Below are positions 5,787-59,606 of a stretch of DNA of 61,403 bases, one piece after another (the first letter of the stretch is position 1; the number at the start of each line of letters is the position of its first letter). A program made the position numbers and the translations under genes. The notes under the pieces are model-generated. The model saw only the letters and a program-made list of their open reading frames with translations. It had not been told where the DNA came from and did not search any database. The stretch spans positions 1 through 61,403 of the forward strand of contig DATNNN010000160.1 of NCBI GenBank assembly GCA_035601815.1. The letters run 5' to 3'. The DNA is from Xanthobacteraceae bacterium. Its GTDB lineage: Bacteria; Pseudomonadota; Alphaproteobacteria; Rhizobiales; Xanthobacteraceae.

Positions 5787-6603
5787 GCCAGCCGGCCTCG
5801 ACGTATTTCACCAGGAGCGGACAGGGGCGGTACTTGGAATCGGCCAGGCCCTCGTGCAGCACCTGCATCACCGAGAGCACCGTATCGAGGCCGATGAAGT
5901 CGGCGAGCTGCAGCGGGCCCATGGGGTGGTGGGCGCCGAGGCGCATGGCGGTATCGATCCCGTCCACCGAGCCCACGCCTTCGTAGAGCGTGTAGATCGC
6001 CTCGTTGATCATGGGCAAAAGGATGCGGTTGACCATGAACGCCGGGAAGTCCTCGGCCACCGCGTAGGTCTTGCCGAGCTTCGTCACGAACGCCTTGGCG
6101 AGCTCGAAGGTCTCCTCGCCGGTGGCGATGCCGCGCACGAGCTCGACCAGCTCCATGACCGGCACCGGGTTCATGAAGTGAATGCCGATGAAGCGCTCGG
6201 GCCGGTTGGTGGAGGCGGCGAGGCGCGTGATCGAGATCGACGAGGTGTTGGTGGCGATCGTCGCGTCGGGCTTCAGGATCGGCGACAGGTCGGTGAAGAT
6301 CTTGCGCTTGACCTCTTCCTTCTCGCTCGCCGATTCAATCACGAGATCGCAGTCGGCGAGATCGCCCATGCGCTCGGCTGGCTGGATGTGGGCGAGCGCC
6401 GCCTTGCGCTCGTCCTCCTTGATCGTGCCCTTCGACACCTGGCGCGCCATGTTGCCGTTGATGGTGGCGAGCGCCGATTTCACCCGCTCCGGGCTCACGT
6501 CGTGGATCAGGATGTCGTAGCCGGCGAGGGCGCCGACGTGGGCGATGCCGTTGCCCATCTGGCCGGCGCCGATTACCCCAATCTTTTTCAGCGGCTTCGC
6601 CAT
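5722..6603 (-). CDS. hbd: 3-hydroxybutyryl-CoA dehydrogenase (NAD-binding 3-hydroxyacyl-CoA dehydrogenase)
   Basis: 293 aa with a Rossmann motif IGVIGAGQMGNGIA. Full-length Hbd/PaaH-like. Follows etfBA. Confidence 0.92.
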   Translation of the reverse strand: MAKPLKKIGVIGAGQMGNGIAHVGALAGYDILIHDVSPERVKSALATINGNMARQVSKGTIKEDERKAALAHIQPAERMGDLADCDLVIESASEKEEVKRKIFTDLSPILKPDATIATNTSSISITRLAASTNRPERFIGIHFMNPVPVMELVELVRGIATGEETFELAKAFVTKLGKTYAVAEDFPAFMVNRILLPMINEAIYTLYEGVGSVDGIDTAMRLGAHHPMGPLQLADFIGLDTVLSVMQVLHEGLADSKYRPCPLLVKYVEAGWLGRKAGRGFYDYRGDKPVPTR

Positions 6604-6608
6604 GGCGG

Positions 6609-7553
6609 TCAGGCCTTGTTCTTGTCGAGCTCTTTCGCGAGCTCGGGCAGCACCTGGAACAGATCGCCGACCAGGCCATAGTCGGCGACCTGGAAGATCG
6701 GCGCCTCCTCGTCCTTGTTGATGGCGACGATGACCTTGGAGTCCTTCATGCCGGCAAGATGCTGGATGGCGCCGGAGATGCCGGCGGCGATGTAGAGCTC
6801 GGGGGCCACCACCTTGCCGGTCTGGCCGACCTGCCAGTCGTTCGGCGCGTAGCCGGCGTCGACGGCGGCGCGCGAGGCGCCGACGGCGGCGCCGAGCTTG
6901 TCGGCCACGGGCTCGATGTATTTGGCGAAGTTCTCCTTGCTCGCGAGCGCGCGGCCGCCGGAGAGGATGATGCGCGCGGCGGTAAGCTCGGGCCGATCCG
7001 ACTTCGACAATTCTTCGCCGACGAAACCGGAAAGACCGGGGTCGGCGGCCGCGGCGACCGGCTCGATCGGCGCGCTGCCGTCTTCGCCCGCCGCCTGAAA
7101 GCCGGCGGTGCGCACGGTGATCACCTTCTTCTTGTCGCCGGACTGCACCGTCTCGATGGCGTTGCCGGCGTAGATCGGCCGCTCGAAGGTGTCGGGGGAG
7201 ACCACCTTGGTGATCTCGGAGACCTGCATCACGTCGAGGAGTGCCGCCACCCGCGGCATGATGTTCTTGCCGGCGGTGGTGGCGGGCGCGACGATCGCAT
7301 CGTAGTTCGCCGCGAGCGACACGATCAGCGCCGCCATGGGCTCGGCGAGGCGATGGGCATAACGCGCGTCGTCGGCGATGAGCACCTTCGATACGCCGCC
7401 GAGCTTGGCGGCGGCCTCGGCCGCGGTTTTCGCGTTCTGGCCGGCGACCAGCACGTGCACGTCGCCGCCGATGGCTTTCGCGGCGGTGAGCGCCTTGGCG
7501 GTGACGCCGTTCAGGGTCTTGTCGTCATGCTCGGCGACGAGGAGGACCGCCAT
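6609..7553 (-). CDS. etfA: Electron transfer flavoprotein subunit alpha
   Basis: 314 aa with the C-terminal FAD-binding region ([19 protein letters not shown]). Overlaps the etfB stop by 1 nt. Confidence 0.93.
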
Positions 7554-8302
7554 CAGAGCACTCCCGCCTCGTTTCGTAGCTTGCTCACCAGCTCCTCGAC
7601 CGACTTCACCTTGACGCCCGCCTTGCGGCCGGCGGGCTCGACCGTCTTCAGCACCTTCAGGCGCGGGGCGGCGTCGACGCCGAGATCGGCGGCGGTCTTC
7701 TCGGCGATCGGCTTCTTCTTCGCCTTCATGATGTTGGGCAGCGAGGCGTAGCGCGGCTCGTTCAGGCGCAGGTCCGTGGTCACCACCGCCGGCATCTTCA
7801 GCTTCACCGTTTGCAGGCCGCCGTCGACCTCGCGGGTGACGCTGATGGCCTCGCCCTCGATCGCGATCTTGGAGGCGAAGGTACCCTGCGCCCAGCCGAG
7901 GAGCGCCGCCAGCATCTGGCCGGTCTGGTTGGAATCGTCGTCGATCGCCTGCTTGCCGAGGATGACGAGGCCGGGTTTCTCCTCGTCGACCACGGCCTTC
8001 AGAATCTTGGCGACCGCAAGCGGCTCGACGGTGCCGTCGATCTTCACGTGGATGCCGCGGTCGGCGCCCATGGCGAGCGCGGTGCGGATGGTCTCGGCCG
8101 CCTGCGCCGGGCCGATGGAGATTGCCACGATCTCGCTCGCCTGACCCTTTTCCTTGAGCCGGATCGCCTCCTCGACGGCGATCTCGTCGAACGGATTCAT
8201 CGACATCTTGACGTTGGCGAGGTCGACCCCGGAGCCGTCGGGTTTCACTCGAACCTTGACGTTGAAATCAACGACCCGCTTGACGGCTACCAACACTTTC
8301 AT
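7553..8302 (-). CDS. etfB: Electron transfer flavoprotein subunit beta
   Basis: Typical start [12 protein letters not shown]. The longest ORF extends two codons further, to 8308. Confidence 0.93.
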
Positions 8303-46565: not shown

Positions 46566-47636
46566 ATGCTCGCCCGTCTCCTCTCCCGGGATCTTCCGCG
46601 CTCCGGTGCGCTTTCGGCAGCGCTGCTCGTCATCCTAATCGGCCTTGCGTTCGCGCCGTTTCTGTTCGCCGGCGCACAGCCGCTGAACGTGGCGGCCAAG
46701 ATCTGCGTGTTCGTGCTCTTGGTCGCGGCCTACGATCTGCTACTTGGCTACACCGGCATCGTCTCCTTCGCCCACACCATGTTCTTCGGCATCGGCGGCT
46801 ATGGCGTCGCCATCGCGCTCGCCCGCTTCGACGCAGGCTGGGGCGCGCTGGCGCTCGGGATCGTCGCCGCCTGCGCCCTCGCGGGCGCGCTCGCTCTCGT
46901 CATCGGGCTCTTCTCGCTCCGGGTGCGCGCGATCTTCTTCGCCATGATCACGCTGGCGGTGGCGTCGGTGTTTGCGGTGCTCGCGTCGCAGCTCTCCGGC
47001 ATCACCGGCGGAGAGGACGGGCTGAACTACCGCGTGCCCGAGCTTCTGCGGCCGTCGTTCCGCCTGTTCGAGAACCCGGTCTTCGGCACCGTGGTGAACG
47101 GCCGGATCGTCACCTATTACGTCGTGTTCGCCGTGGCGCTCGCGGGCTTCCTGGTGCTGCTTCGCATCGTTAACTCGCTGTTCGGCCGCGTGCTCCAGGC
47201 GATCCGCGAGAATGACTTCCGCGCCGAGGCGCTGGGCTATCCGGTGGTGGTCTATCGGTCGATCGCGAGCGTCATCTCGGCGGTGGCGGCGGCGCTCGCC
47301 GGCATACTCTTGGCGCTGTGGCTGCGCTACACCGGGCCGGACACGACGCTCTCCTTCACCATAATGATCGACGTGCTGCTCATGGTGGTGATCGGCGGCA
47401 TGGGCACGCTCTATGGCGCGGTCATCGGCGCCACCTTAATGATCATGGCGGAGAACTATCTGCAGGTGCTCATGGGCCGCCTCAGCGAGGCCACGGCCGG
47501 GCTGCCACTGTTGCCCGCGCTGTTCTCGCCGGACCGCTGGCTGTTGTGGCTCGGCATTCTGTTCGTGCTGAGCGTCTATTTTTTCCCTGCAGGCATTGTT
47601 GGCCGGCTGCGCGCGGGCGCGGCGCGGAACTCGTAG
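46566..47636 (+). CDS. Branched-chain amino acid ABC transporter permease (LivM-like)
   Basis: 356 aa from MLARLLSRDL. Motif LLLGYTGIVSFAHTMFFGIGGY is typical of LivM. Confidence 0.9.
   Translation: MLARLLSRDLPRSGALSAALLVILIGLAFAPFLFAGAQPLNVAAKICVFVLLVAAYDLLLGYTGIVSFAHTMFFGIGGYGVAIALARFDAGWGALALGIVAACALAGALALVIGLFSLRVRAIFFAMITLAVASVFAVLASQLSGITGGEDGLNYRVPELLRPSFRLFENPVFGTVVNGRIVTYYVVFAVALAGFLVLLRIVNSLFGRVLQAIRENDFRAEALGYPVVVYRSIASVISAVAAALAGILLALWLRYTGPDTTLSFTIMIDVLLMVVIGGMGTLYGAVIGATLMIMAENYLQVLMGRLSEATAGLPLLPALFSPDRWLLWLGILFVLSVYFFPAGIVGRLRAGAARNS
47481..47636 (+). repeat. Intact livM 3' end (last 51 codons plus stop), homologous to the relic at 55347-55502
   Basis: Manual codon alignment gives 136/156 nt identical. 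17 of 52 codons differ, but only 2 amino acids change. Confidence 0.85.
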
Positions 47637-47781
47637 GGCTCAAGCCTCCCGGGCGACCCCGAAGGCCCCTGAAACGCATTGTGAATGTGCGGGCGCTTGT
47701 GCTTTCCTTGCCATCGAACGGCTCAAGCGCCACGGCGGTCGCATCGCGGCCGGGCAAGGGGCGCGCATGGGGGAGCAAAAT

Positions 47782-48750
47782 ATGCGTATTTGGCTGACCG
47801 CGGTATCGGCGGTGGTGCTCTCGGCTTCGCTCAACACTGCAGGCGCCCAGGAAGTCACGCTCAAGGGCATCACGTCGTTCGCCGAGAAGACGTTCTACTC
47901 GCGCGGCTTTGAGAAGTTCATCGACAAGGTCAATGCCGACGGCAAGGGCGTGATCCAGATCAACTACATCGGCGGGCCGAAGGCGATGCCGCCGTTCGAG
48001 GTCGGCAACGCGCTCAAAGGCGGCGTCGTCGACATCGCCAACGTCACCGGGGCCTTCTACACCAACCTCATGCCCGAGGCCGACGCCTGGAAGCTCACCG
48101 AGCGGCCGATGTCGGAGCTGCGCAAGAACGGCGGCTACGACTACATGGCGAAGATCTACGACCAGAAGCTCAACGCCATCCTGCTCGCGCGCCACATCGA
48201 CAACAATCCGTTCCACCTCTACCTGAACAAGCCGATCGACAAGATCGACCTCACGGGCCTCAAGCTGCGCATCACGCCGGTCTATCGCGACTTCTTCCAA
48301 TCGCTCGGCGCCACCGTCGTGCAGACCGCACCGGGCGAGGTCTACACCGCGCTCGAGCGCGGCGTGGTCGACGGCTACGGCTGGCCGATCACCGGCATCT
48401 TCGATCTCGGCTGGCACGAGAAGACCAAGTACCGTGTCGATCCCGGCTTCTACTCGGCCGAGGTCAGCATCCTGATCAACAAGGCGACGTGGGACCGGCT
48501 CAACGACGCGCAGAAGAAGGTCGTCACCGACGCCGCCGTGTGGCTCGAAGGCCAGGCCCAGGACACGGTCAAGGAGAACGAGGCCGACATCGCCAAGCAG
48601 AAAGCTGCCGGCATCCAGGTGATCGAGTTCAAGGGCGCCGATGGCGCCGCCTTCCGCGCTAAGGCGTACGAGGCGGGCTGGGCCGGCGTCATCCGGCAGA
48701 GTCCCGAGCACGGCCCGAAGCTCCGGGAGTTCTTCTCCAAGGCCAAGTAG
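47782..48750 (+). CDS. TRAP transporter substrate-binding protein (DctP family)
   Basis: Starts MRIWLTAVSAVVLSASLNTAGAQ (signal peptide). DctP-family length. Followed by Q and M subunits. Confidence 0.88.
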   Translation: MRIWLTAVSAVVLSASLNTAGAQEVTLKGITSFAEKTFYSRGFEKFIDKVNADGKGVIQINYIGGPKAMPPFEVGNALKGGVVDIANVTGAFYTNLMPEADAWKLTERPMSELRKNGGYDYMAKIYDQKLNAILLARHIDNNPFHLYLNKPIDKIDLTGLKLRITPVYRDFFQSLGATVVQTAPGEVYTALERGVVDGYGWPITGIFDLGWHEKTKYRVDPGFYSAEVSILINKATWDRLNDAQKKVVTDAAVWLEGQAQDTVKENEADIAKQKAAGIQVIEFKGADGAAFRAKAYEAGWAGVIRQSPEHGPKLREFFSKAK

Positions 48751-48783
48751 CGGGTCGAGCATCACGCCGGCGAGGAGCGCGAC

Positions 48784-49299
48784 ATGGATCGCTTGTCCGG
48801 GGCGTTCGGCCGCTTTCTCGATTGGCTGATGGGCTTGGCCTGCCTGCTGCTGTTCGCCATGACGCTGTTGATCGGCGGCGACGTGTTCACGCGCAACGCC
48901 GGTGTCGGCGGCATCGCGTGGAGCAACGAGGTGTCCGAGAACATCCTCTATCTCATCACGCTGTTCTCGGCGCCGTGGCTGCTGCGCCAAGGCCAGCATA
49001 TCCGCGTGGACATCCTGCTGCGCGCGATTCCTGCCGGCGTCGGATGGGTGCTGGAGTGGATCGGCGACCTCTTGGGTTTCGCCTGCTCGGTCTACTTCGT
49101 CTGGTACGGCTTCAAGGTGCTGGCTGCCAGCTACCAGGCGGGCGCGATCAACATCAAAACCCTGGTTACGCCGGAATGGTGGCTGCTCGCGCCCCTGCCG
49201 ATCGCGTTCCTGCTGGTGGCGATCGAGTTCATCTTCCGCATGCGCCGCCTCGCCCACGGCGAACGGGCGCCGCGTACCGACGCGGTGTCGGTGTCATGA
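48784..49299 (+). CDS. TRAP transporter small permease (DctQ family)
   Basis: 171 aa with four TM helices. Overlaps the dctM-like start by 4 nt (ATGA). Confidence 0.85.
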   Translation: MDRLSGAFGRFLDWLMGLACLLLFAMTLLIGGDVFTRNAGVGGIAWSNEVSENILYLITLFSAPWLLRQGQHIRVDILLRAIPAGVGWVLEWIGDLLGFACSVYFVWYGFKVLAASYQAGAINIKTLVTPEWWLLAPLPIAFLLVAIEFIFRMRRLAHGERAPRTDAVSVS

Positions 49300-50612
49300 C
49301 CTGGCAGCTCGCCGCGCTGCTCCTGCTCGGTGGATCGACGGTGTTGCTGCTGCTCGGCATGCCGGTGGCGCTTTCCTTCGTCGCCATCAACATCGTCGGC
49401 GCGTTCCTCTATCTCAGCGGCGAGGCCGGACTCTCCCAGGTGGTGCGCAACAGCGTCGTCTCGGTCATGAGCTTCTCGCTCACGCCGATCCCGCTCTTCA
49501 TCCTGATGGGCGAGGTCCTGTTCCACACGGGCCTTGCCGTCCGCGTCATCGACGGCGTCGAGCGGCTCATCCGCCAGGTGCCGGGCCGGCTCGCCGTGGT
49601 CGCCGTGGTCGCCGGCACCGTGTTCTCGGCGATCTCGGGCTCCACCATCGCCACCACCGCCATGCTCGGCTCGCTGATGTTGCCGATCATGCTCGCCCGC
49701 GGCTATCACCCCACCATGGCGACCGGACCCATCATGGCGATCGGCGCCGTGGACATGCTGATTCCACCCTCGGCGCTGACCGTGCTGCTAGGCTCGCTTT
49801 CGGGAATCTCGATCTCCAAGCTTTTGATCGGCGGCGTGGTGCCGGGCTTGATGCTGTCCGTTGCTTTCGTCGTCTACATCATCGTGCGCGCGAAGATCTC
49901 GCCCCGGCTCGCGCCGCCGACGCCCATCGCTAAGGCGGCAGGCTGGGAGAACTGGCGCCTGCTCATCCTCTATGTCGTGCCGCTGATCACGATCTTCGCC
50001 GTGGTGGTCGGCGCCATGTCGGCGGGGTTCGCGACACCCACGGAATCCGCAGCACTCGGCGCCATCGCCACTATGGCGCTCGCCGCGCTCTACCGCGTCT
50101 TGACCGTCGACGCCCTGGTGAGGTCGCTCCGGGGCACGGTGGCGATCACCGGCATGATCCTGTTCATCATCCTCGGCGCCACCACCTTCTCCCAGATCCT
50201 GAGTTTTTCCGGCGCCACCGACGGAATCGTCTCCCTCATCCTCGGCCAGGGCTTCTCGGAGCTCGCGCTCGTGGCCCTGATGATGGCGACGCTGGTGTTC
50301 CTCGGCATCTTCGTCGACCAGGTCAGCATGATGCTGATCACGCTGCCCGTCTTCATGCCGCTGGTGACGAGGCTCGGCGTCGATCCCATCTGGTTCGGCG
50401 TCCTATTTCTTATCTGCATGCAGCTCGGCCTCTTGCTGCCGCCGCACGGGCTTCTGCTCATGACCATGCGCGGCGTGGCGCCGCCGGAAGTGACGTTCGC
50501 CCACATCTTTCAGGCGGTCGTTCCCTATGTGATCATGAGCCTGTTGCTGCTCGGCCTTCTGTTGCTCGTGCCGCAAATCGCCACCTGGCTGCCCAACCTC
50601 TTGATCGGTTGA
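49296..50612 (+). CDS. TRAP transporter large permease (DctM family)
   Basis: 438 aa from MTWQLAALLLLGG, polytopic. Typical DctM blocks (GSTIATTAMLGSLMLP, GVAPPEV). Confidence 0.9.
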   Translation: MTWQLAALLLLGGSTVLLLLGMPVALSFVAINIVGAFLYLSGEAGLSQVVRNSVVSVMSFSLTPIPLFILMGEVLFHTGLAVRVIDGVERLIRQVPGRLAVVAVVAGTVFSAISGSTIATTAMLGSLMLPIMLARGYHPTMATGPIMAIGAVDMLIPPSALTVLLGSLSGISISKLLIGGVVPGLMLSVAFVVYIIVRAKISPRLAPPTPIAKAAGWENWRLLILYVVPLITIFAVVVGAMSAGFATPTESAALGAIATMALAALYRVLTVDALVRSLRGTVAITGMILFIILGATTFSQILSFSGATDGIVSLILGQGFSELALVALMMATLVFLGIFVDQVSMMLITLPVFMPLVTRLGVDPIWFGVLFLICMQLGLLLPPHGLLLMTMRGVAPPEVTFAHIFQAVVPYVIMSLLLLGLLLLVPQIATWLPNLLIG

Positions 50613-50632
50613 ATGCGGAATTGAGGAGTCCG

Positions 50633-52291
50633 ATGAAAGGCAATTCCACGGTCGCCGCCGTCATCGCGCGCGATCTCGCCGCGCTCGGCGCGCGGCGCTG
50701 CTTCGGCCTGCTCGGCACCGCGAACTTCAAGATCACGCATGCGCTGGTGGAGGCGGGCGTCGAGCTGATCTCGGCCCGCCATGAAGGCAACGCCGCTACC
50801 ATGGCCGACGCCTATGCCAAGGCCACCGGCGAGCTCACGCTCGTCAGCGTCCACTCGGGGCCCGGCCTCACCAACGCCATCACCGGCATCGGCGAGGCCG
50901 CGAAGAGCCGCACGCCCCTCGTGGTGCTGGCGGGCGACGTGCCCACCGGCGCGGTGCGATCGAACTTCTACATCGAGCAGGCCGAGCTCGCGCGCTCCGT
51001 CGGTGCGGTGTCCGAGCGCATCCACACGCCGCAGACGGCGCGCGCCGATACGTTGCGCGCCGTCACCCGCGCGTTGCGCGACCGCCAGACCGTGGTGCTG
51101 TCGCTCCCCACCGACGTGCAGGACGCGGAGCTCCCCGCGAGCAACGCGCCGCTCGCGTTGCCGCCCGATCCCGGCCGACTGCAGCCGGATCCCGCCGCCG
51201 TGCGCCGTCTCGCCGAAGCGCTCGCGTGCGCCGAACGTCCGCTCATTCTCGGCGGGCGCGGCGCCGTGTTGTCCGACGCGGAGGAGGCGCTCGTCGCGCT
51301 TGCCGACCGCACCGGCGCGCTGCTCGCCACGTCCGCGTGCGGGCACGGGCTGTTTGCCGGAAATTTCTGGTCGCTCGGCATCTGCGGCGGCTTCTCGTCG
51401 CCCATCGCCGACGCGTTGATCCCCGAGAGCGACCTCATCGTCGGCTTCGGCGCGAGCTTCACCCAGTGGACCACCAAGAAGGGCAAGCTCACCGCCGGCG
51501 CTACCATCGCTCAGGTCGATGTGGAGGCCGCGAAGCTCGGCAGCCACACGCCGATTGGGCTCGCGGTCCACGGCGACGCCAAGGCGACCGCCGAGGCGCT
51601 GCTCGCCGAGCTCGGCCGGCAAGGCCTCACGAGCCCGCGGCCGGGTCGCCGCAGCGACCGCATGCGCGAGCGCATCCATTCCGGTGACAACCATCACAGC
51701 CCGCAGCGGGACGAGTCCACCGCGCACGTCATCGATCCCCGCACGTTGAGCAAGGCGGTGGACGAGATCCTGCCCAAGGATCGCGTGGTAGCGTCGGACT
51801 CCGGCCATTTCTGCGGATGGGTGCCGCGCTATCTGCGCGTGCTGAATCCACGCGCCTCATGTCTGAGCCATTCCTTCCAGTCGGTGGGCCTCGGGCTCGC
51901 GTCGGCGATCGGCCTGGCCATCGCCAACCCGGGCAAGCTCGCGGTCCTCGGCGCCGGCGACGCCGGATTTCTCATGTCGATTTCCGATCTTGAGACCGCG
52001 CTCCGCCTGAAGCTGCGGATGTGCATCCTGATCTACAACGATGCTTCCTTGGCCGCGGAAGTCCACTACTTCCAGCGCAAGGGCTATTCCACTGACATCG
52101 TGCAATTCCCCGACACGGATTTCGCCGCCATCGCGCGAGGATATGGCGCGCAAGCGGCGACCGTGCGCACACTCGCCGATCTCGAGCCGTTGCGGAAATG
52201 GGTGAAGGACGGCGCCCCCGGTGTGTTCGTGATCGACGGCAAGATCAATCCGGAGCTTGAGGCCGACTGGCACGCAGAGCACTTCCCGTAG
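50633..52291 (+). CDS. Thiamine diphosphate-dependent enzyme (acetolactate synthase/benzoylformate decarboxylase-like)
   Basis: 552 aa from MKGNSTVAAV. N-terminal PYR domain (HEGNAATMADAYAK, GPGLTNA). ThDP-binding motif GAGDAGFLMSISDLETA...IYNDAS. Confidence 0.85.
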   Translation: MKGNSTVAAVIARDLAALGARRCFGLLGTANFKITHALVEAGVELISARHEGNAATMADAYAKATGELTLVSVHSGPGLTNAITGIGEAAKSRTPLVVLAGDVPTGAVRSNFYIEQAELARSVGAVSERIHTPQTARADTLRAVTRALRDRQTVVLSLPTDVQDAELPASNAPLALPPDPGRLQPDPAAVRRLAEALACAERPLILGGRGAVLSDAEEALVALADRTGALLATSACGHGLFAGNFWSLGICGGFSSPIADALIPESDLIVGFGASFTQWTTKKGKLTAGATIAQVDVEAAKLGSHTPIGLAVHGDAKATAEALLAELGRQGLTSPRPGRRSDRMRERIHSGDNHHSPQRDESTAHVIDPRTLSKAVDEILPKDRVVASDSGHFCGWVPRYLRVLNPRASCLSHSFQSVGLGLASAIGLAIANPGKLAVLGAGDAGFLMSISDLETALRLKLRMCILIYNDASLAAEVHYFQRKGYSTDIVQFPDTDFAAIARGYGAQAATVRTLADLEPLRKWVKDGAPGVFVIDGKINPELEADWHAEHFP

Positions 52292-52353: not shown

Positions 52354-53571
52354 CTATAGAACTTCGACCGCTGTCTGCGACCCAATCCCCCATACTGAGT
52401 CTTTGCGCTTGACCCAGACGAACCCTTCACCCTTGGAGAGGACGGCGATGTCGATCGGTCCTCCGACGGTCTCCTTTTGCGTCACCGACATCCGTGCCCG
52501 AAATGCAGTGAGGTTGACTAGCGCCTCGGCCATCGCTGCAAGATCGTGGCGGGGCAGCGCCGCCACCGCAGCCATAAATGGTTGTGCGTATCGTCTCTGG
52601 ACCTCTTGTTCCATTTTTTCGTGAAGATCGTTTGCGGCCTTCTCGACCCGCGCGCGCGATCGCCTCTTGCTGCTTTTGCTGGCTTGTACCGGCCGGCGTC
52701 TAGCAATCATCTCCACAAATTTCTCTTCGAGCTCCGGAAAAATCCCGCGAATGATCATGTCGATCGTCTCTCTCTGCGCGAACGGAACGATCATTGCGTC
52801 GTCATCGCGGGTCACGCGTATGTCGCGTACTTTTGCGTACCTCAGTCTTCCTACCGCAATACTCCCAACGCGATAATGCAGCAGGATGGGAAAAAGATCG
52901 GATTCGCCCATGCCGGCGATGACGACCCCGCTTCCGGCGCTTGGCACTGTGGTGTGCATCAAGCGGACGGTCGTCCTAAGAGCCGGCCCGACATGTCGTG
53001 ACAATTTGAGCGAGCCGAACATTTCCTGCTGCAGCTCGTCGAGAATGTCGCCGTACGCGGCCACAACGTGATCTCCATATGCCGGCCCCAACTCCTCAAC
53101 GATCGGATGTTTGTTCCACAATTTATGGTCTTCGTGGATCAGTTCTTCCAGAATCCCGCTTGCATTGCTCGCTGCGCTTTTTGTCCGATCTACCAATTTC
53201 TTCTTCAATGGGTCCAGATAGAGATCCTGCCATACGTCTTTCACAAACGAGCGGATTTCTGCACGCTGGGCCGATTGTGGGAATAGGGACTCGGTTCCCT
53301 CGACGAAGCGAAGGAAGTCATGAGCGTATTGTTCGAGCGTCTCGAATCTACGACCATCGAGCTTCTGGCCATAAATCTTGATGATGATCTCCCAGGGCAC
53401 GCCCATGAAATCGGCTGACCCATGCGTCATAATGCCGACGGCTGCTGGCGGCGAGAGAGGAAAAAGCTTCTCGGCGCTGTGATAAATTTTCTCGCCTTCA
53501 CCCAAGGTAACAGCGCTGTCGGCAGCGAGGGCGATTCCGCGCCTATTCATCACGGCGACCTCACAGGTCAT
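52354..53571 (-). CDS. Ntn-hydrolase, HslV/proteasome-beta-like, 405 aa with large inserts (uncharacterised)
   Basis: Begins M-TCEVAVMNRRGIALAADSAVTLGEGEKIYHSAEKLFPL..GSADF, alignable to the HslV N-terminus (Thr1, Asp17, TLG21-23, Lys33/34). SD AAGGGGA. An in-frame TGA lies one codon upstream of the ATG. C-terminus GGPIDIAVLSKGEGFVWV. Lower GC than the flanks. Confidence 0.7.
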   Translation of the reverse strand: MTCEVAVMNRRGIALAADSAVTLGEGEKIYHSAEKLFPLSPPAAVGIMTHGSADFMGVPWEIIIKIYGQKLDGRRFETLEQYAHDFLRFVEGTESLFPQSAQRAEIRSFVKDVWQDLYLDPLKKKLVDRTKSAASNASGILEELIHEDHKLWNKHPIVEELGPAYGDHVVAAYGDILDELQQEMFGSLKLSRHVGPALRTTVRLMHTTVPSAGSGVVIAGMGESDLFPILLHYRVGSIAVGRLRYAKVRDIRVTRDDDAMIVPFAQRETIDMIIRGIFPELEEKFVEMIARRRPVQASKSSKRRSRARVEKAANDLHEKMEQEVQRRYAQPFMAAVAALPRHDLAAMAEALVNLTAFRARMSVTQKETVGGPIDIAVLSKGEGFVWVKRKDSVWGIGSQTAVEVL

Positions 53572-53703
53572 GGTTCATCCCCTTCTTGCAAATCCCCGCC
53601 ATTGAACAGATCCGATCGGTTCTCAAGATCAGAACGGTCTTTTGAGCCAATCGTGCCCAAGCACCAAAGTCTCTAGTTGGCGTCTGCGTCAAAATCGGAC
53701 GTA

Positions 53704-53889
53704 CTATTCGTATGGAAGCGACGCCAGAACCTGTAACCACGAGGTAACCACGGCGTTCTTGCAGCGTTCCAAAACCCCGAAAACGCCGGCGGTCTTGCGG
53801 CAGATTGTGCAGTAGCAGCAAGGCTGCGGCGCGTGAGAATCCACTGAGAATTTCACTGCGCCGCACCGACAGGAACCCTCCAGTCGCAT
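53704..53889 (-). pseudogene. Truncated GFA (glutathione-dependent formaldehyde-activating/CENP-V-like) family gene
   Basis: The 61-aa ORF begins GSCRCGAVKF...CCYCTICRKTAG (GFA Zn-Cys motifs) but stops at about half the family length. Downstream DNA to ~53572 has no intact continuation in any frame. Confidence 0.65.
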
Positions 53890-54225
53890 CGGTATGTTCA
53901 GCCTCCCTTGCTTCGACGTTCAGCCATAGTGGGCCTATGATGCAACACCCCGCATTGATCGCTGGTTGATTCCGGCGGCGTCTAGGGGATCTCGTAGACC
54001 TTCAATTCTTCGGTGACCCCGCGAAGCGTAGCGCAAGACGATCGGCGACGCGGTGATGGCCACGTTGCCGCGCCCGCGTCGGCCGCCTGCCGCAATGCGG
54101 CGAAGGGGGCTTGAGCTTGGTTCACGCGAAAAAGCTTACGCCAAAACCGGCGGCGAGAAAGGGGCTGTGCTCTGCTTGTGGCCGCCGTGCTAATATTATC
54201 TTGTTTGCAACCCGCGGAGACCCGC

Positions 54226-55170
54226 ATGTCTGTCAAAGTTGCCGTGGTGCAGGCGCCCCCCGTTTTACTCGACCGTGCAGCGACCATTTCGCGGATGCTT
54301 CAACATATGGCCGACGTGGCTGCGGCCGGGGCCAAGTTGGTTGTCTTTCCGGAAGCTTATATCCCCGGTTATCCAAGCTGGGTGTGGCGGCTCAAACCGG
54401 GTGGCGACATGGTGCTCGCCGGTGAAATCCACGCGCGGCTGCGCGAGCAGGCAGTTGATCTCGCGCGTGGCGACCTGAAGCCGCTCACCGAAGCCGCTGC
54501 GCATTACGGCCTCACTATGGTCTGCGGTCTACACGAAATAGACTCTGAGTTCAGCGGCACGACGCTCTTCAATAGTGTGGTCGTCATCGGTCCCGACGGC
54601 GCAATTCTCAATCGCCATCGCAAGCTCTTGCCCACTAATCCCGAACGCATGGTATGGGGACGCGGCGATGCGCGTGGCCTGCGCGTCGTGGAAACACCGG
54701 CCGGCCGCATCGGGACCCTGATCTGTTGGGAAAATTATATGCCGCTTGCACGCTATGCTCTGTATGCGCAGAATCTGGAGGTTCTCGTCGCACCGACGTG
54801 GGACTGCGGCGAGGAGTGGATCGCCAGCATGCGGCACATCGCGCGAGAAGGTGGCTGCTGGGTCATTGCCACGGGCACTGCCATTCAAGCGAGCGACGTG
54901 CCCAAGGATTTTCCAGGTCGAGATCGTCTCTTCAGCGACAACGACGAATGGCTATGTGATGGAGGCGCCTTGATCGTGCGGCCATTTGGCAAAGTAGAAT
55001 CAGGACCGCTCAACCGGGACAAGACGGTGCTCTTCTCTGATATCGACCCTTCACTGGCTCCGCGATCCCGCCGTTCTCTCGATGTGACGGGTCACTACGC
55101 ACGTCCTGATATTTTTCACCTCCAGGTTAACCGTGCCCCCTTGCCGCCTGTTGAGTTCCGGGATGGCTGA
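54226..55170 (+). CDS. Nitrilase/cyanide hydratase family carbon-nitrogen hydrolase
   Basis: 314 aa from MSVKVAVVQAPP. Catalytic triad context VVFPEAYIPGY (Glu), NRHRKLLPT (Lys), LICWENYMP (Cys). Confidence 0.88.
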   Translation: MSVKVAVVQAPPVLLDRAATISRMLQHMADVAAAGAKLVVFPEAYIPGYPSWVWRLKPGGDMVLAGEIHARLREQAVDLARGDLKPLTEAAAHYGLTMVCGLHEIDSEFSGTTLFNSVVVIGPDGAILNRHRKLLPTNPERMVWGRGDARGLRVVETPAGRIGTLICWENYMPLARYALYAQNLEVLVAPTWDCGEEWIASMRHIAREGGCWVIATGTAIQASDVPKDFPGRDRLFSDNDEWLCDGGALIVRPFGKVESGPLNRDKTVLFSDIDPSLAPRSRRSLDVTGHYARPDIFHLQVNRAPLPPVEFRDG

Positions 55171-55728: not shown

Positions 55729-56961
55729 ATGGTCGACGTTGCCGCCAGATTTCTTCGAGCCGGCCTGTTTGCGTTCGCCGCCGGTCTTTTCGCCTTTGTA
55801 GGCGCTGCCGGTGCGGCCGATCCGATTAAAATCGGCGTCACCATTGCCCAATCACCGCCCGGCTCGGTCTCTCAGGGCGTGCAGGTGAAGGACGGGGTCG
55901 AAATCGCGGCCGCGATCATCAACGCCGCCGGCGGCGTGAACGGCCGGCTGATCGAGCTCATCTTTGAGGACACCCAGGGCATTCCGGAAAAAGCGCGCGC
56001 CGCGGTGGAGAAACTCATTACCCGCGACAAGGTCATCGCCATCGTCGGCGAGCACCAGAGTTCGGCCGCGCTCGTGGGAATGGAAGTCGCGCGCCGCTAC
56101 CACGTGCTCTACGTCAATACCAACGCGTGGTCGGATGCGGTCCGCGAGAAGGGCTATGCCGAGGTGTTCAATCCCGGCAACTACAACAGCCGCGTCGCCA
56201 TCGCCATGGCCGACACGATGAAGTCGCTCGGCGTCAAGCGCGTGGTGGCGTTCTGCGAGAACACCGACTACGGCGTCGGTCTCGCCAAGCTGCTCGGCGT
56301 TCAGCTCGCCGAGCGCGCACCCGGCATCGAATACAAGTACGAGACGCTCGACCGCGCCGGAAAGGACTTCTTGCCGGCGCTCTTGCCGCTGAAATCCAAT
56401 CCGCCCGACGCGGTCGTCGAGATCATGCTGCCGCCGGCGGCCTACATCCTGCTCAATCAGTTGAACGAGCAGGGGATCGTGCCGACCTCGAAGACCTGGC
56501 TCTACGACGCTTCCGGCATCGCCGACTATCCCGACTTCTGGCAGAACGTCGGCGACGCCGCGAAGAACATGCTCGTCTTCGGCCTCTATCACCCGAAGAT
56601 GACGCTGCCCGATCTCGGCAAGAAAGTCGCCGCCGACTACACCGCCAAGACAAAGTTCCAGCCGAACCGTCTGTTGTTCCAGGCGGCCGACAGCGTGTTC
56701 ATCGTGGCCGAGGCGGTCAGGGCCGCGAATTCCACGGAAACGGACGCCCTCATCAAGGCACTGGAGGCGATGAAGTGGACCGGCTCGCGCGGTACAATCA
56801 CCTTCTCGGCCGAGAAGGCGGGCTACAAATACCATCAGTGGCTCGACGTGCCCTACGTCACGTTCCAGATCACGGCGGTCAAGCAGCCGATCGCGGACAC
56901 CAAGCTTGTGCAGGATCCGGGTCAGCCGCTCGACGTCTCGCGGCTCGAAAAGACGAAGTAG
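55729..56961 (+). CDS. ABC transporter substrate-binding protein (Leu/Ile/Val-binding family)
   Basis: 410 aa with a signal peptide (FAFVGAAGAADPIKIGV). Type I PBP pattern. Heads a second Liv-type operon. Confidence 0.88.
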   Translation: MVDVAARFLRAGLFAFAAGLFAFVGAAGAADPIKIGVTIAQSPPGSVSQGVQVKDGVEIAAAIINAAGGVNGRLIELIFEDTQGIPEKARAAVEKLITRDKVIAIVGEHQSSAALVGMEVARRYHVLYVNTNAWSDAVREKGYAEVFNPGNYNSRVAIAMADTMKSLGVKRVVAFCENTDYGVGLAKLLGVQLAERAPGIEYKYETLDRAGKDFLPALLPLKSNPPDAVVEIMLPPAAYILLNQLNEQGIVPTSKTWLYDASGIADYPDFWQNVGDAAKNMLVFGLYHPKMTLPDLGKKVAADYTAKTKFQPNRLLFQAADSVFIVAEAVRAANSTETDALIKALEAMKWTGSRGTITFSAEKAGYKYHQWLDVPYVTFQITAVKQPIADTKLVQDPGQPLDVSRLEKTK

Positions 56962-57021
56962 CTCGCGGCGCATGACAGGAGCGGGAGGCGCCCGGCGTCT
57001 CCCGCTCCATGTCTCTCCTCC

Positions 57022-57912
57022 ATGCTCGCGCTGGACCTCACCATCAACGGCTTGATCATCGGCGTATTCTACGCGCTGATGGCGATCGGGCTGTCGCTGA
57101 TTTTCGGCGTGCTCAAGATCGTGAACTTCGCCCACGGCGAGTTCTACATGGTGGGCGCCTACGCCTATACGCTCGGCGCGCTCATGCTCGGCATCCCGCC
57201 CTGGGCGGCGCTCCCCTTTGCGTTTCTGGCGGGCGTGATCGTCGGGCTTATCGTGGAACGGACGCTGATGCGGCCGCTCTACGCGGGATACACTTCCTGG
57301 TCGGTGATGCGCGACGAATACGCCGTCATTGTCACCTTCGGCCTCTCGCTTCTTCTGATCAACCTCGTCGACAAGGTCATCGGTCCTTACGCCTACAAGG
57401 GACCGGCGCTCGCGCAGGCGTCACGCATCGCGATCGGCCCGATTCTGATCAGTGGCCACCGGCTGGTAGCGGCGCTGCTCGCCGCCGCCGTCATCGTCGC
57501 CGTCCTGCTCGTGGTCCGCTATTCCTACTGGGGCCGTCAGATCCAGGCCGTGGCGCAGAACCGTCTCGGCGCATCGCTTGCCGGCATCGACCCCGCCAAG
57601 GCGAGCGCCATCGTGTTTGCGCTTGCCGGCGGGCTCGCGGCGATTTCCGGCGCGCTGCTCGCCAACATCTTCAACCCCACGCCCGACGTCGGCGTGTTCC
57701 CGGCGATCAAGTCCTACGTGATCGTGGTGCTCGGCGGCATGGGATCGGTGCCGGGCAGCATCATCGCGAGCCTCATCCTCGGCGTCTTCGAGAGCTTCGG
57801 CGGCGTCTACATCTCCTACCAGTACCGCGACACCTTCGGGCTCATGATTCTGATCGCCATTCTTCTGTTCCGCCCGCAAGGGCTGTTCGGCGAACGGTCG
57901 CGGGACGTGTGA
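57022..57912 (+). CDS. Branched-chain amino acid ABC transporter permease (LivH-like)
   Basis: 296 aa. Motif LSLIFGVLKIVNFAHGEFYM. Confidence 0.9.
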   Translation: MLALDLTINGLIIGVFYALMAIGLSLIFGVLKIVNFAHGEFYMVGAYAYTLGALMLGIPPWAALPFAFLAGVIVGLIVERTLMRPLYAGYTSWSVMRDEYAVIVTFGLSLLLINLVDKVIGPYAYKGPALAQASRIAIGPILISGHRLVAALLAAAVIVAVLLVVRYSYWGRQIQAVAQNRLGASLAGIDPAKASAIVFALAGGLAAISGALLANIFNPTPDVGVFPAIKSYVIVVLGGMGSVPGSIIASLILGVFESFGGVYISYQYRDTFGLMILIAILLFRPQGLFGERSRDV

Positions 57913-57914
57913 CG

Positions 57915-58883
57915 ATGCTACGATTCGGCAACCGCGATCCCAACGGCGGCGACCTTGTGGTGTCGCTGGGCATTCTCGCGTTAGTCGCGGTCGCGCCGGC
58001 CTACGTGACCAACGATTACTGGCGTGGCGTTTTGGTCGTGTCGATGTACTTCGCCATGCTCGCCGCCGCCTGGAATCTACTGGCGGGCTATACCGGGCAG
58101 TTCTCGCTTGCGCCCGCCGCCTTTGGCATGATCGGCGCCTACGTCACCGGGATGCTGGCCTATTACTACGGAGTCCCGCCACTCATCGGGATCGCCGCCG
58201 CCATCGTCGTCGCCGCAGCCATCGGCTTCCTGCTCGGCCGGATCGTGCTGCGCCTGCGCGGGCCGTATCTGGCGCTGACCACGCTATCGTTCGCCGAGAT
58301 CGTCCGCCTCGTCATCAGCAACTCCATCGATATCACCCGCGGCGACCTCGGACTGAACGTGCCCGGCATCGTCAACCAGCGCATCGTTTACTACTACCTG
58401 ATGCTAGTCGTGCTGCTCGCGGTCCAGCTCGGGCTCTACTTCCTACTGCGCTCGCGCGCCGGATTGTATTTGCGGGCGATCCGCGACGACGAAACCGCCG
58501 CGGCGAGTCGGGGCGTGAAGGTCGTCGTCTGGAAGACCAACGCGTTCACGCTGAGTGCCGCAATCTCCGGCCTTGCCGGTGCGCTTTACGCCCATTTCGC
58601 CCAGTTCATCAGCCCGGAGCTGGGGCTCCTGTCGCAGACCGGCATCATCATCTCTATGGCGGTGATCGGCGGCCTCGGCACGCTGCCGGGCCCGATCGGT
58701 GCCGCGTTCCTGGTCTATGTCGCTTCGGAGTTCCTGCGCGATTTCGGCGGCTATCAGCTCATCATTTTCGCGCTGCTCGTGATCATCTTCGGCCGCTTCT
58801 TCCGCGACGGGCTGTGGGGGATGGTGCGCAAGCTCGTGGCCGGCGCGAAGCGCCGCGCCGCGCCGCCGGCGCCCGCGGAGTAG
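57915..58883 (+). CDS. Branched-chain amino acid ABC transporter permease (LivM-like)
   Basis: 322 aa from MLRFGNRDPN. Motif LLAGYTGQFSLAPAAFGMIGAY. Confidence 0.9.
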   Translation: MLRFGNRDPNGGDLVVSLGILALVAVAPAYVTNDYWRGVLVVSMYFAMLAAAWNLLAGYTGQFSLAPAAFGMIGAYVTGMLAYYYGVPPLIGIAAAIVVAAAIGFLLGRIVLRLRGPYLALTTLSFAEIVRLVISNSIDITRGDLGLNVPGIVNQRIVYYYLMLVVLLAVQLGLYFLLRSRAGLYLRAIRDDETAAASRGVKVVVWKTNAFTLSAAISGLAGALYAHFAQFISPELGLLSQTGIIISMAVIGGLGTLPGPIGAAFLVYVASEFLRDFGGYQLIIFALLVIIFGRFFRDGLWGMVRKLVAGAKRRAAPPAPAE

Positions 58884-58886
58884 CCG

Positions 58887-59606
58887 ATGACGCTCCTCGC
58901 CATCGCTCAAGTCTCCAAGTCGTTCGGCGGCATCAGGGCGCTCGCGGGGGCCACGTTTTCCGTCGAGCCCAGTGAGCTTGTCGGCCTCATCGGCCCGAAC
59001 GGCTCCGGCAAGACAACGCTCATCAACATCCTGAGCGGGCATCTCGCGGCCGAGGGGGGGAGTGTGACGCTCGACGGCCGGGCGATCGCCGGAATGCGGC
59101 CCGAGGCGCTGGCGCGGCGCGGAATCCAGCGCACCTTCCAGATCACCCGAGCCTTTCCGCGCATGAGCGTGCTCGACAACCTCATGGTTGTCGGCTGCGC
59201 GCTGGGGCTCACACAGGACGCCGCCGAGCAACGGGCCCGCGCGCTTGTCCACGAGCTGTCGCTGACGCGCGTGATCGATCTCGACGCCGGCCACCTGTCC
59301 GGCGGGCAACTCAAGCTTCTCGAGTTCGGCTCCTGCTTCATGGTGCCGCCCCGCATCGCGCTGCTCGACGAGCCGTTCGCCTCCGTCCATCCCACTATGA
59401 AGGAGATCATGGCCGGGTTTATTCGCGCGCGGCATAAGGAAGGGCAGACTTTCCTGGTGGTCAGCCACGACATGCCAGTGGTGGTCGAGCTTTGTCCGCG
59501 CACCGTATGCATGAACGCCGGCGTGGTCATCGCTGACGAGAGCACACGGGCGGTGCTCACCGATCCGGTGGTGATCGAGGCCTATCTCGGACAGGCAGCA
59601 GCATGA
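58887..59606 (+). CDS. ABC transporter ATP-binding protein (LivG-like)
   Basis: 239 aa. Walker A GPNGSGKTT, signature LSGGQLKLLE, Walker B LLDEP. Confidence 0.9.
   Translation: MTLLAIAQVSKSFGGIRALAGATFSVEPSELVGLIGPNGSGKTTLINILSGHLAAEGGSVTLDGRAIAGMRPEALARRGIQRTFQITRAFPRMSVLDNLMVVGCALGLTQDAAEQRARALVHELSLTRVIDLDAGHLSGGQLKLLEFGSCFMVPPRIALLDEPFASVHPTMKEIMAGFIRARHKEGQTFLVVSHDMPVVVELCPRTVCMNAGVVIADESTRAVLTDPVVIEAYLGQAAA

Follow-up and report, generated by a model that had tools for sequence, protein, structure and literature searches.

The window analysed here is a 61,403-nucleotide stretch (positions 1 to 61,403) of contig DATNNN010000160.1 of a Xanthobacteraceae bacterium (GenBank assembly GCA_035601815.1), and the gene under study is a minus-strand open reading frame (ORF) that encodes a 405-residue homologue of the proteasome beta subunit. 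An earlier note, made from the DNA letters, had described the product as an orphan, double-sized relative of HslV with a threonine directly after the initiator methionine, and reading of the window sequence bore out this gene model. The frame is intact. The coding-strand sequence around the start is AAGGGGA-TGA-ACC-ATG-ACC(Thr)-TGT(Cys)-GAG, which places threonine at residue 2 behind a Shine-Dalgarno sequence, and because the in-frame TGA lies one codon upstream of the ATG an N-terminal extension or propeptide is impossible. A promoter and terminator scan returned nothing convincing on the coding strand.

Base composition distinguishes the gene from its surroundings. The GC content is 0.52-0.58 over 52.25-54.0 kb versus 0.63-0.73 in the flanks, and GC at third codon positions (GC3) is 64% in the protease gene versus 86-88% in the flanking core genes for the thiamine pyrophosphate (TPP) enzyme and a solute-binding protein. 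The lower-GC islet described in the earlier note is borne out by both measures, and the ORF is of foreign composition. The ratio of nonsynonymous to synonymous substitution rates (dN/dS) for the window gene against its five nearest relatives is 0.12-0.16; the window copy is kept under purifying selection. The protein retains every residue conserved at ≥90% in its family with the exception of P44A and the conservative replacement V375I.

Homology to the proteasome beta subunit

AlphaFold2 was used to model the protein from a 49-sequence alignment, giving a mean predicted local distance difference test (pLDDT) score of 82 and a predicted template modeling (pTM) score of 0.81. A Foldseek search of the PDB with this model gave 75 matches at E<=1e-3, and every one of the 50 listed was a 20S beta subunit or Anbu, with a probability of 1.00 in nearly every case. 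The best match in BFVD, a viral library, is annotated 'Proteasome beta type-2 subunit'. The predicted structure has the alpha-beta-beta-alpha sandwich of proteasome subunits, the fold for which the earlier note had proposed to search such a model.

Sequence searches located the same relationship once the insertions described below were removed. Full-length phmmer and full-length profile searches of PDB sequences returned BamA POTRA domains, CspZ and coiled coils, all dismissed as chance matches, and a search of NCBIfam gave no match. The Pfam Proteasome family PF00227 matches residues 3-46 with E=0.18 and 11.9 bits against a gathering cutoff of 22.4. The same sub-threshold match appears in 21 of the 49 family members searched, at best with E=0.0027, and other Pfam families recur in no more than 2 of the 49. 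A second alignment, A2, contained 34 diverse members with both insertions spliced out. When the A2 profile was run against the whole PDB, the beta subunit of Thermoplasma acidophilum (1PMA, 1YA7, 3C91) ranked 1-3 with E~1e-3. The match consists of two collinear segments. The first starts exactly at Thr2 and the mature Thr1, and in the second hmmsearch aligned KETVGGPIDVAVISKGDGFV to DSASGGMIDVAVITRKDGYV (beta residues 166-185). In the C-terminal core VGGPIDIAVLSKGEGF was aligned to beta SGGMIDVAVITKKDGY (residues 169-184) by both hmmsearch and hhalign. In the sequence searches of the PDB, homology to the beta subunit showed only after the inserts had been spliced out, and the profile search suggested in the earlier note failed at full length and succeeded in its insert-free form.

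Profile-profile comparison was performed with hhalign between A2 and a beta-subunit profile built from retrieved database sequences. The alignment has E=1.5e-4 over 106 columns, starts exactly at Thr2/Thr1 and extends across H1 and H2 and on into the VVIAGMGE strand; a separate C-terminal segment scored E=9.8e-4. Four independent lines, the recurrent weak Pfam match, the AlphaFold2/Foldseek fold match, the A2 profile and the hhalign comparison, establish homology to the proteasome beta subunit. These results identify the product as a homologue of proteasome-beta-type N-terminal-threonine hydrolases by fold, profile and catalytic triad. The more specific likeness to HslV proposed in the earlier note did not hold, the best sequence and structure matches being archaeal and eukaryotic 20S beta subunits and Anbu.

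Conservation of the predicted active site was counted over 350 diverse family members. Of the 332 sequences without a gap at the predicted nucleophile Thr2, 327 have Thr and 3 have Ser; Asp18 is conserved in 349/350 and Lys35 in all 350. HMMER and hhalign both align Asp18 with beta Glu17 and Lys35 with Lys33, which agrees with the catalytic constellation assigned in the earlier note. Translation of 80 genome loci from bacteria and archaea, begun at the tblastn start, gave Thr directly behind the initiator in every case, and many of the loci have an in-frame stop ≤10 codons upstream. Cys3 of the window protein is specific to its clade, and most of the family has Ala at this position. Further near-invariant positions are N9, S19, K28, G51, P59-W60-E61, G220 and G222, followed in the C-terminal half by P263, A265, Q266, E367-T368-V369, D374, K380 and W386.

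The residues that support the triad in 20S beta subunits are not conserved at the corresponding positions. The site of the GSG motif (Ser129) reads P263-F-A265-Q266, an assignment made by secondary-structure register (strand 259-263, helix 267-275) and not by residue-level alignment; the earlier note had placed PFAQ here, and the register fits. V369 is aligned with Ser169 and K366 with Asp166 by HMMER and hhalign. The near-invariant neighbors of these two positions, E367 and T368, might act as substitutes. In the hhalign alignment beta Gly47 falls in a gap between M48 and T49, and the near-invariant G51 (327/350) aligns with beta Gly50; because the oxyanion hole is a backbone function, residue identity at the Gly47 position is not decisive. 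Because PFAQ replaces GSG and V369 sits at the Ser169 position, catalytic competence can only be inferred. Activity is likely but not assured, and the caution expressed in the earlier note is upheld.

The model and the alignments divide the chain into core segments separated by two helical insertions, which account for the approximate doubling in size that had been noted (Table 1). Insertion 1 (~110 residues) consists of four or five helices (99-128, 137-152, 165-185, 194-207), mostly with pLDDT >88. The hhalign splice point falls between beta 'KYM' and 'PYM' in the H2-S5 loop; the ~100-residue helical insert reported earlier is thus present, but it follows the second core helix and not the first. 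In the central core the strands lie within residues 214-263 and the helices within 267-291 (H3). Insertion 2 (~47 residues) contains the basic linker already recognized in the earlier note, with pLDDT 57-67 at residues 290-310, indicative of flexibility, and a helix at 302-338. H4 follows and directly precedes the segment aligned to beta residues 166-185. The C terminus, read earlier as the terminal beta-strands of the fold, has two terminal strands in the model and aligns with the beta subunit. There is no insertion between S3 and S4, just a short variable loop at residues 23-29.

Table 1. Features of the protease gene, its surroundings in the window and related loci. Coordinates refer to the window except in the last row, where each locus (L number) has its own numbering.
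Feature	Position	Strand	Basis or remark
CDS (coding sequence) of the 405-aa PMI-type proteasome-beta homologue, stop codon included	52354..53571	-	ORF, homologues, AlphaFold2 model, Foldseek, phrog_5990, dN/dS
Shine-Dalgarno sequence AAGGGGA, 6 nt 5' of ATG	53578..53584	-	Read from sequence
In-frame TGA, one codon 5' of ATG	53575..53577	-	Read from sequence
Thr2 codon, predicted N-terminal nucleophile after Met removal	53566..53568	-	Thr after start in 80/80 loci; aligns with beta Thr1
N-terminal core, residues 1-98: S1-S5 with Asp18 and Lys35; H1 (60-71), H2 (79-92)	53278..53571	-	AlphaFold2, hhalign, conservation
Insertion 1, residues ~99-208: helical domain at the H2-S5 'pore loop' site	52948..53277	-	AlphaFold2, hhalign
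Central core, residues 209-291: four strands (GMGE 220-223), PFAQ 263-266, H3	52699..52947	-	AlphaFold2, conservation
Insertion 2, residues ~292-338: basic linker KSSKRRSRAR and long helix, between H3 and H4	52558..52698	-	AlphaFold2
C-terminal core, residues 339-392: H4 (341-361), ETVGGPIDIAV, two terminal strands	52396..52557	-	AlphaFold2, hmmsearch, hhalign, conservation
Disordered C-terminal tail, residues 393-405, and stop codon	52354..52395	-	pLDDT <50 at 390-405; variable in alignment
61-aa ORF, GFA (glutathione-dependent formaldehyde-activating enzyme) fragment	53704-53889	-	PF04828, E=5.8e-7, profile positions 2-37 of 115
CN_hydrolase (nitrilase-family) gene beside the islet	54178-55170	+	GC ~0.57-0.60, GC3 64%
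Flanks: TRAP (tripartite ATP-independent periplasmic) transporter DctP/Q/M, TPP-dependent enzyme (convergent with protease gene), branched-chain-amino-acid-type ABC transporter	47596-52291 and 55729-59606		
Small transmembrane (TM) protein-protease-WYL module in related loci	L088 5610-8470; L089 5601-8406; L094 4633-9169; L097 2-2690; L002 6592-9197		

Assignment to the PMI group and a proposed mode of action

The earlier note knew of no described family with this architecture, a statement that is overturned by the in-silico catalogue of Fuchs, Alva and Lupas (Bioinformatics 2021, PMC8665760), whose 'PMI' proteins (Proteasome homolog with Multiple Insertions) have exactly both insertion sites. 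The groups are defined there by insertion sites: PMI-2 to PMI-6 carry an insertion between H3 and H4, one between S3 and S4 is confined to PMI-5, PMI-6 and connectase, and the new families all lack a propeptide. Insertions 1 and 2 of the window protein correspond to the third and fourth insertion sites of that scheme. Because the pore-loop and H3/H4 insertions are present and the S3/S4 insertion is absent, PMI-3 and PMI-4 are the groups left for the protein. It shares with both the core with the Thr1/Asp17/Lys33 triad, the lack of a propeptide, the insertion after H1/H2 and the second insertion between H3 and H4, as well as the lack of a conserved genomic context and of an AAA+ partner, and no difference in a defining feature was seen. 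The largest of the new families in the catalogue is PMI-4 (501 nr90 sequences), recorded in Proteobacteria, Firmicutes, Actinobacteria, Bacteroidetes, the Planctomycetes-Verrucomicrobia-Chlamydiae (PVC) group, Cyanobacteria, other bacteria, Euryarchaeota and phages; PMI-3 comprises 28 sequences with no phage members (PMC8665760). The homologues collected here have the same broad distribution as PMI-4 except for Cyanobacteria, of which there are none among the loci listed. PMI-4 is the most likely assignment, made by architecture and distribution and not by sequence comparison with the published representatives HDY66466.1 and OGZ26396.1.

A search of phage protein families matched residues 1-391 to positions 1-413 of the 427-position profile phrog_5990 (E=4.1e-84), which carries the category 'unknown function' and which the phage and satellite homologues also match. 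No later paper characterizing the family was found in a literature search. The PMI proteins have thus been known in silico since 2021 and are experimentally uncharacterized, and the window protein is a further member. It is very probably an active PMI-type threonine hydrolase. Fuchs et al. found neither a genomic context nor co-occurring genes, and no partner of the AAA+ type (PMC8665760); the present analysis adds a larger family, phage-satellite and prophage-edge sites, and a clade-specific module of small TM protein, protease and WYL regulator.

Comparison with characterized proteasome relatives sets the protein apart from each. It resembles the 20S beta subunit (T. acidophilum PsmB, 1PMA) in its fold, N-terminal Thr, acidic residue 17, Lys33 and a collinear C-terminal segment of the form GG-x-ID-VAV-(I/L)-(T/S)-K-x-G-(F/Y), but differs in having no propeptide or autoprocessing, two insertions totaling ~160 residues, PFAQ in place of GSG (Ser129), Val in place of Ser169, and neither an alpha subunit nor an ATPase. 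HslV (ClpQ) is likewise bacterial, has Thr directly after the initiator Met and shares the N-terminal strand pattern; it is, however, a compact protein of ~175 residues without insertions that assembles into a double hexamer and whose gene accompanies hslU, whereas the window protein has two insertions in 405 residues and no hslU was found nearby. Anbu, among the top structural matches, is a bacterial protein with Thr1 and no propeptide, but it measures ~235-250 residues and ends in a long C-terminal helix. The Anbu operon is conserved with ATP-grasp, alpha-E and transglutaminase-like genes. No such neighbors were present in a Pfam census of 149 proteins flanking homologues of the window gene.

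Connectase is a stand-alone proteasome homologue without propeptide or ATPase, and a helical insertion is thought to gate its active site and give specificity. It is restricted to methanogens, with MtrA as the known substrate (PMC8665760; PMC7980362). This monomeric enzyme, with a helical element over the active site and no propeptide, is the precedent for an alternative in which the window protein would be a sequence-specific transpeptidase or protein ligase and not a hydrolase. Connectase lacks H1/H2 and carries its insertion between S3 and S4; the window protein is the opposite on both counts, and there is no conserved neighboring gene for a substrate. A ligase activity is accordingly judged highly improbable.

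The following mode of action is proposed for the protease. Translation from the ATG at 53571 gives a chain with no propeptide, and methionine aminopeptidase, by its established specificity, would remove Met1 and free the Thr2 nucleophile. The earlier note's view that Thr is exposed by Met removal alone fits the impossibility of a propeptide, with the removal step itself predicted. Asp18 and Lys35, by alignment and conservation, complete the proteasome-type Thr1/Asp17/Lys33 triad, and the enzyme would become active without autoprocessing or assembly. The two helical insertions occupy the ring-pore and ring-ring contact positions, and from these positions we infer that the protein has no canonical stacked-ring chamber and no need for an unfoldase. 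The insertions may instead act as an intramolecular lid or substrate-recognition module that replaces both. By analogy with monomeric connectase, such an enzyme would be a site-specific peptidase and not a bulk degrader. The chances that this non-ring, lid-gated mechanism is right or wrong appear evenly balanced.

Fuchs et al. suggested that the insertions either clash with ring and double-ring assembly or form a cap (PMC8665760), and the second option leads to a different enzyme. In this alternative the protein would form a ring-forming, self-compartmentalizing degradative protease with its inserts turned outward as a cap or gate that replaces the unfoldase or works with housekeeping chaperones in clearing unfolded or damaged proteins. 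All characterized close relatives (20S, HslV, BPH, Anbu) oligomerize, the core dimerization helices H3 and H4 are kept, and in the published models the inserts do not touch the core and might point outward to form a regulatory 'cap' (PMC8665760). The insertions nevertheless lie exactly at the pore-loop and ring-ring interfaces, the pTM of the model suggests inserts packed in a fixed way on a single-chain core, and the patchy distribution as mobile cargo described below does not fit housekeeping quality control. A degradative ring is considered unlikely, and the non-ring, lid-gated mechanism is preferred.

Distribution and mobility of the family

A word-indexed search returned >2,158 homologues of ~400 residues. 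An exhaustive profile search, which covered 1.84 billion cluster representatives, returned 5,878 clusters at 50% identity with E<=1e-3 and 3,045 with E<=1e-30. The window ORF is a real gene and not a chance reading frame. The listed loci come from Proteobacteria, Bacillota, Actinomycetota, Bacteroidota, PVC, Chloroflexota, the candidate phyla radiation (CPR) and archaea. Homologues are also carried by 10 plasmids (Rhizobium, Mesorhizobium, Ruegeria, Pantoea, E. faecium), by 57 IMG/VR contigs and by 13 phage or satellite records, the latter including phages of Streptococcus, Porphyromonas, Providencia and Stenotrophomonas and seven Streptococcus 'Javan' satellites that resemble phage-inducible chromosomal islands (PICIs).

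Annotated elements place the gene in accessory slots. It lies at the distal satellite end after a small HTH_3 regulator, at the extreme prophage end after holin and lysin, and, in a lambdoid phage, between Q antiterminator/Dam and holin. On IMG/VR contigs of ≥25 kb, 29 of 45 copies fall in the outer 20% versus 40% expected (p~8e-4), a test weakened because related prophages are not independent. The viral neighbors are mainly CI-like/XRE repressors and endolysins, and one prophage group has an XRE-type helix-turn-helix (HTH) gene directly upstream of the homologue. The family moves horizontally as a single gene, as accessory cargo of mobile elements.

The streptococcal satellite phage Javan103 (L085, 8956-10479) illustrates the arrangement in PICI-like satellites, where the gene for the homologue comes last but one; 22 nt upstream of it lies an HTH_3/XRE regulator with a weak 'addiction module antidote' match. 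A jackhmmer search from one satellite HTH protein recovered 5 regulators only, too few for position mapping. At four loci (L013, L018, L037 and L063) the copies are interrupted after 42-154 codons and represent pseudogenes, frameshifts or assembly errors. Because several loci carry such copies, the gene appears to be lost by decay at times.

Genomic neighborhood and candidate roles

Clustering of neighbor ORFs by BLAST over 84 loci revealed no family-wide partner. Most recurrent neighbor clusters were rejected as antisense shadows of the protease gene itself, and the sole real one was a WYL regulator in the close clade. In the Pfam census of 149 immediately flanking proteins no family occurred more than twice, and no AAA+/HslU neighbor recurred across the 84 loci. 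Because no conserved partner was found among these 84 loci and 149 proteins, a solitary gene is the rule for the family. Within the 61-kb window, hidden Markov model (HMM) searches found neither a WYL gene nor the small partner, and a second proteasome-like gene is likewise absent. The region within +/-6 kb of the protease gene encodes only transporters, the TPP enzyme and the nitrilase, with no AAA+ neighbor; the remaining ORFs of the window were not all annotated for AAA+ domains. Over this range the absence of partner genes reported in the earlier note is confirmed.

The co-occurring neighbors that the note had proposed to look for are not found family-wide but do exist in the window's own clade. 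Most of the nearest relatives, at 72-79% identity (L088, L089/90, L094-96, L097), together with L002-4 and L006, carry a module in the order small protein of ~120 residues, protease gene, and a winged-HTH-WYL-WCX regulator that lies either downstream on the same strand or divergently upstream. The small protein has one strong hydrophobic helix, no Pfam match and the pattern ...WKGWLTGSLPM...LWxWALLIFVAGLLxAMFRVYRELR...GPFMLVPL..., and its stop overlaps the protease start. In these relatives the protease would be expressed with the small membrane protein under the WYL/WCX regulator. Regulators of this type are reported to sense single-stranded DNA and to govern DNA-damage regulons or defence systems (PMC11662680, PMC9122601, PMC12041258). 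Genes for PDDEXK_1 (AddB-like) and UvrD-type helicase proteins come next at several module loci, and L088 adjoins Shedu (SduA_C) and GIY-YIG genes.

At L094, two conserved-looking proteins of 184 and 368 residues with no Pfam match are encoded between the protease and the WYL gene (6255-8067). At L001 (1-5829) a homologue with 51% identity lies ~4 kb from a WYL/WCX gene flanked by PDDEXK_1 and two AAA genes, and prophage genes (terminase, ParB-methylase) and an Apyc1-like metallo-beta-lactamase gene are also nearby.

The window and its closest relative, L093 (82% identity), have neither the membrane partner nor the WYL regulator. Nucleotide similarity between the window and its relatives ends 13-24 nt 5' of the ATG and 20-50 nt 3' of the stop, and tblastn and blastn searches upstream of the window copy detected no remnant of the gene for the small membrane protein. 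A 101-residue ORF at 53561-53866 on the minus strand was considered as such a remnant and rejected, as it has no similarity to the partner protein. It shares 11 nt with the beginning of the protease gene, just as the true partner does in several relatives, because conserved TGT-GAx (Cys-Glu) codons create a TGA in that frame. At L093 a VapBC-like PSK_trans_fac/PIN toxin-antitoxin pair (1646-2292) directly follows the homologue, which hints at a mobile or variable region.

The missing partners raise the alternative that the window copy is a non-functional leftover or dead pseudo-enzyme, stranded after loss of the membrane protein and the WYL regulator. Both module partners of the 72-79%-identity relatives are indeed missing, equivalents of Ser129 and Ser169 are absent, and truncated copies occur at the four loci listed above. 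Against this stand the intact frame and Shine-Dalgarno sequence, the low dN/dS, the presence of all family-invariant residues, and the solitary state of most of the family, phage and satellite copies included. The solitary arrangement also recurs, with an identical protein, on two further contigs, each from a different sample, one of them a soil metagenome. That the copy is dead is the least probable of the alternatives considered, and a functional protease is favored.

The regulators beside the gene suggest another role. ImmA/ImmR and IrrE/DdrO provide the model logic for an anti-repressor-type protease. By analogy, the enzyme could respond to a stress or infection cue by cleaving an adjacent WYL/WCX or XRE-type regulator, and the cleavage would switch a mobile element or a regulon for defence or DNA damage. 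A regulator adjoins the gene in several unrelated contexts: WYL/WCX in most of the nearest relatives with flanking sequence (the closest, L093, excepted), HTH_3 directly upstream in the streptococcal satellites, the XRE-type HTH in one prophage group, and CI-like repressors as the commonest viral neighbors. The adjacency is not universal, though; no regulator family is enriched among the 149 genomic neighbors, the window has no adjacent regulator, regulators are common beside any accessory or defence gene, and the protease gene often lies beside a lysis cassette. Cleavage of a neighboring regulator is rated unlikely, somewhat less probable than the degradative ring but more probable than the ligase.

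The weakest step of the favored scheme, a lid-gated peptidase, is its target, which may be a specific protein cleaved in phage/host conflict or in mobile-element control. A search of the protein against PADLOC v2.0 gave no match even at E<=10, and a literature search for proteasome-like or Ntn (N-terminal nucleophile) proteins in phage defence found nothing relevant. In a PADLOC census ~7-9 of the 149 immediate genomic neighbors matched defence models, a suggestive number that lacks a proper background for comparison; these are scattered singles (Type III methyltransferase/restriction-modification (RM), Type IIG RM, PD-T4-6, PDC-S32, mad6, UzuA, WYL). A conflict or regulatory role is offered tentatively, with the balance tipped against it. 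The explanation taken as a whole, from Met removal to target, is held to be slightly the better bet.

Several points weigh against this explanation. The Pfam score for PF00227 is under the gathering cutoff, and the hhalign probability is only 51%, from low-diversity profiles. The supporting residues Ser129, Asp166 and Ser169 are unconserved at the aligned positions, and the family is known from sequences and models, from which catalysis is deduced. The PMI-4 assignment was made independently of the sequence of the representative HDY66466.1, and lid geometry and ring fit are taken from Fuchs et al. (PMC8665760) and not from the coordinates of the model. The window lacks the membrane partner and regulator of its relatives. 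The defence link is weak, as PADLOC has no model for the family and the neighbor count carries the limit stated above.

A broader and more doubtful reading, placed just below the conflict role in probability, is that PMI homologues make up a very large class of lid-gated Thr proteases, mobile and encoded by single genes, that act in phage/satellite/host conflict or element control. By analogy they could be Lit-like abortive-infection proteases, or ImmA/IrrE-like anti-repressors that cleave neighboring WYL/XRE regulators or the small membrane effector. The window's clade would then have started from a cassette that damage or infection induces and that comprised the WYL regulator, the membrane protein and the protease, of which the window keeps only the protease. 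If this reading is true, the family would contain the first prokaryotic proteasome-family enzyme in immune or mobile-element regulation, and one that does not form rings.

The proteasome family is the textbook case of chambered, ATPase-fed proteolysis, and the PMI-type branch, with at least 5,800 clusters at 50% identity, is seemingly among its largest uncharacterized parts. The triad is kept, yet the insertions and the lack of partners argue for a different, self-contained mode of working. New here are the scale of the family, its position as mobile-element cargo and the clade-specific WYL-membrane protein-protease cassette, and these context findings make hypotheses of defence, anti-repressor action and membrane-effector processing testable. 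A solitary copy still under purifying selection is a handle for function, and, as with connectase, a useful sequence-specific protease or ligase might result.

In the window the protease ORF is flanked by a truncated GFA-family fragment and the TPP-enzyme gene. The fragment, in which only the first third of the GFA profile is matched, lies immediately upstream of the protease gene and may mark the boundary of the acquired segment. Because the CN_hydrolase gene shares the low GC content and a GC3 of 64%, the islet of foreign composition may reach ~55.2 kb. The ABC transporter of the flanks comprises a binding protein, two permeases and ATPases, and the flanking genes belong to ordinary metabolism and transport.

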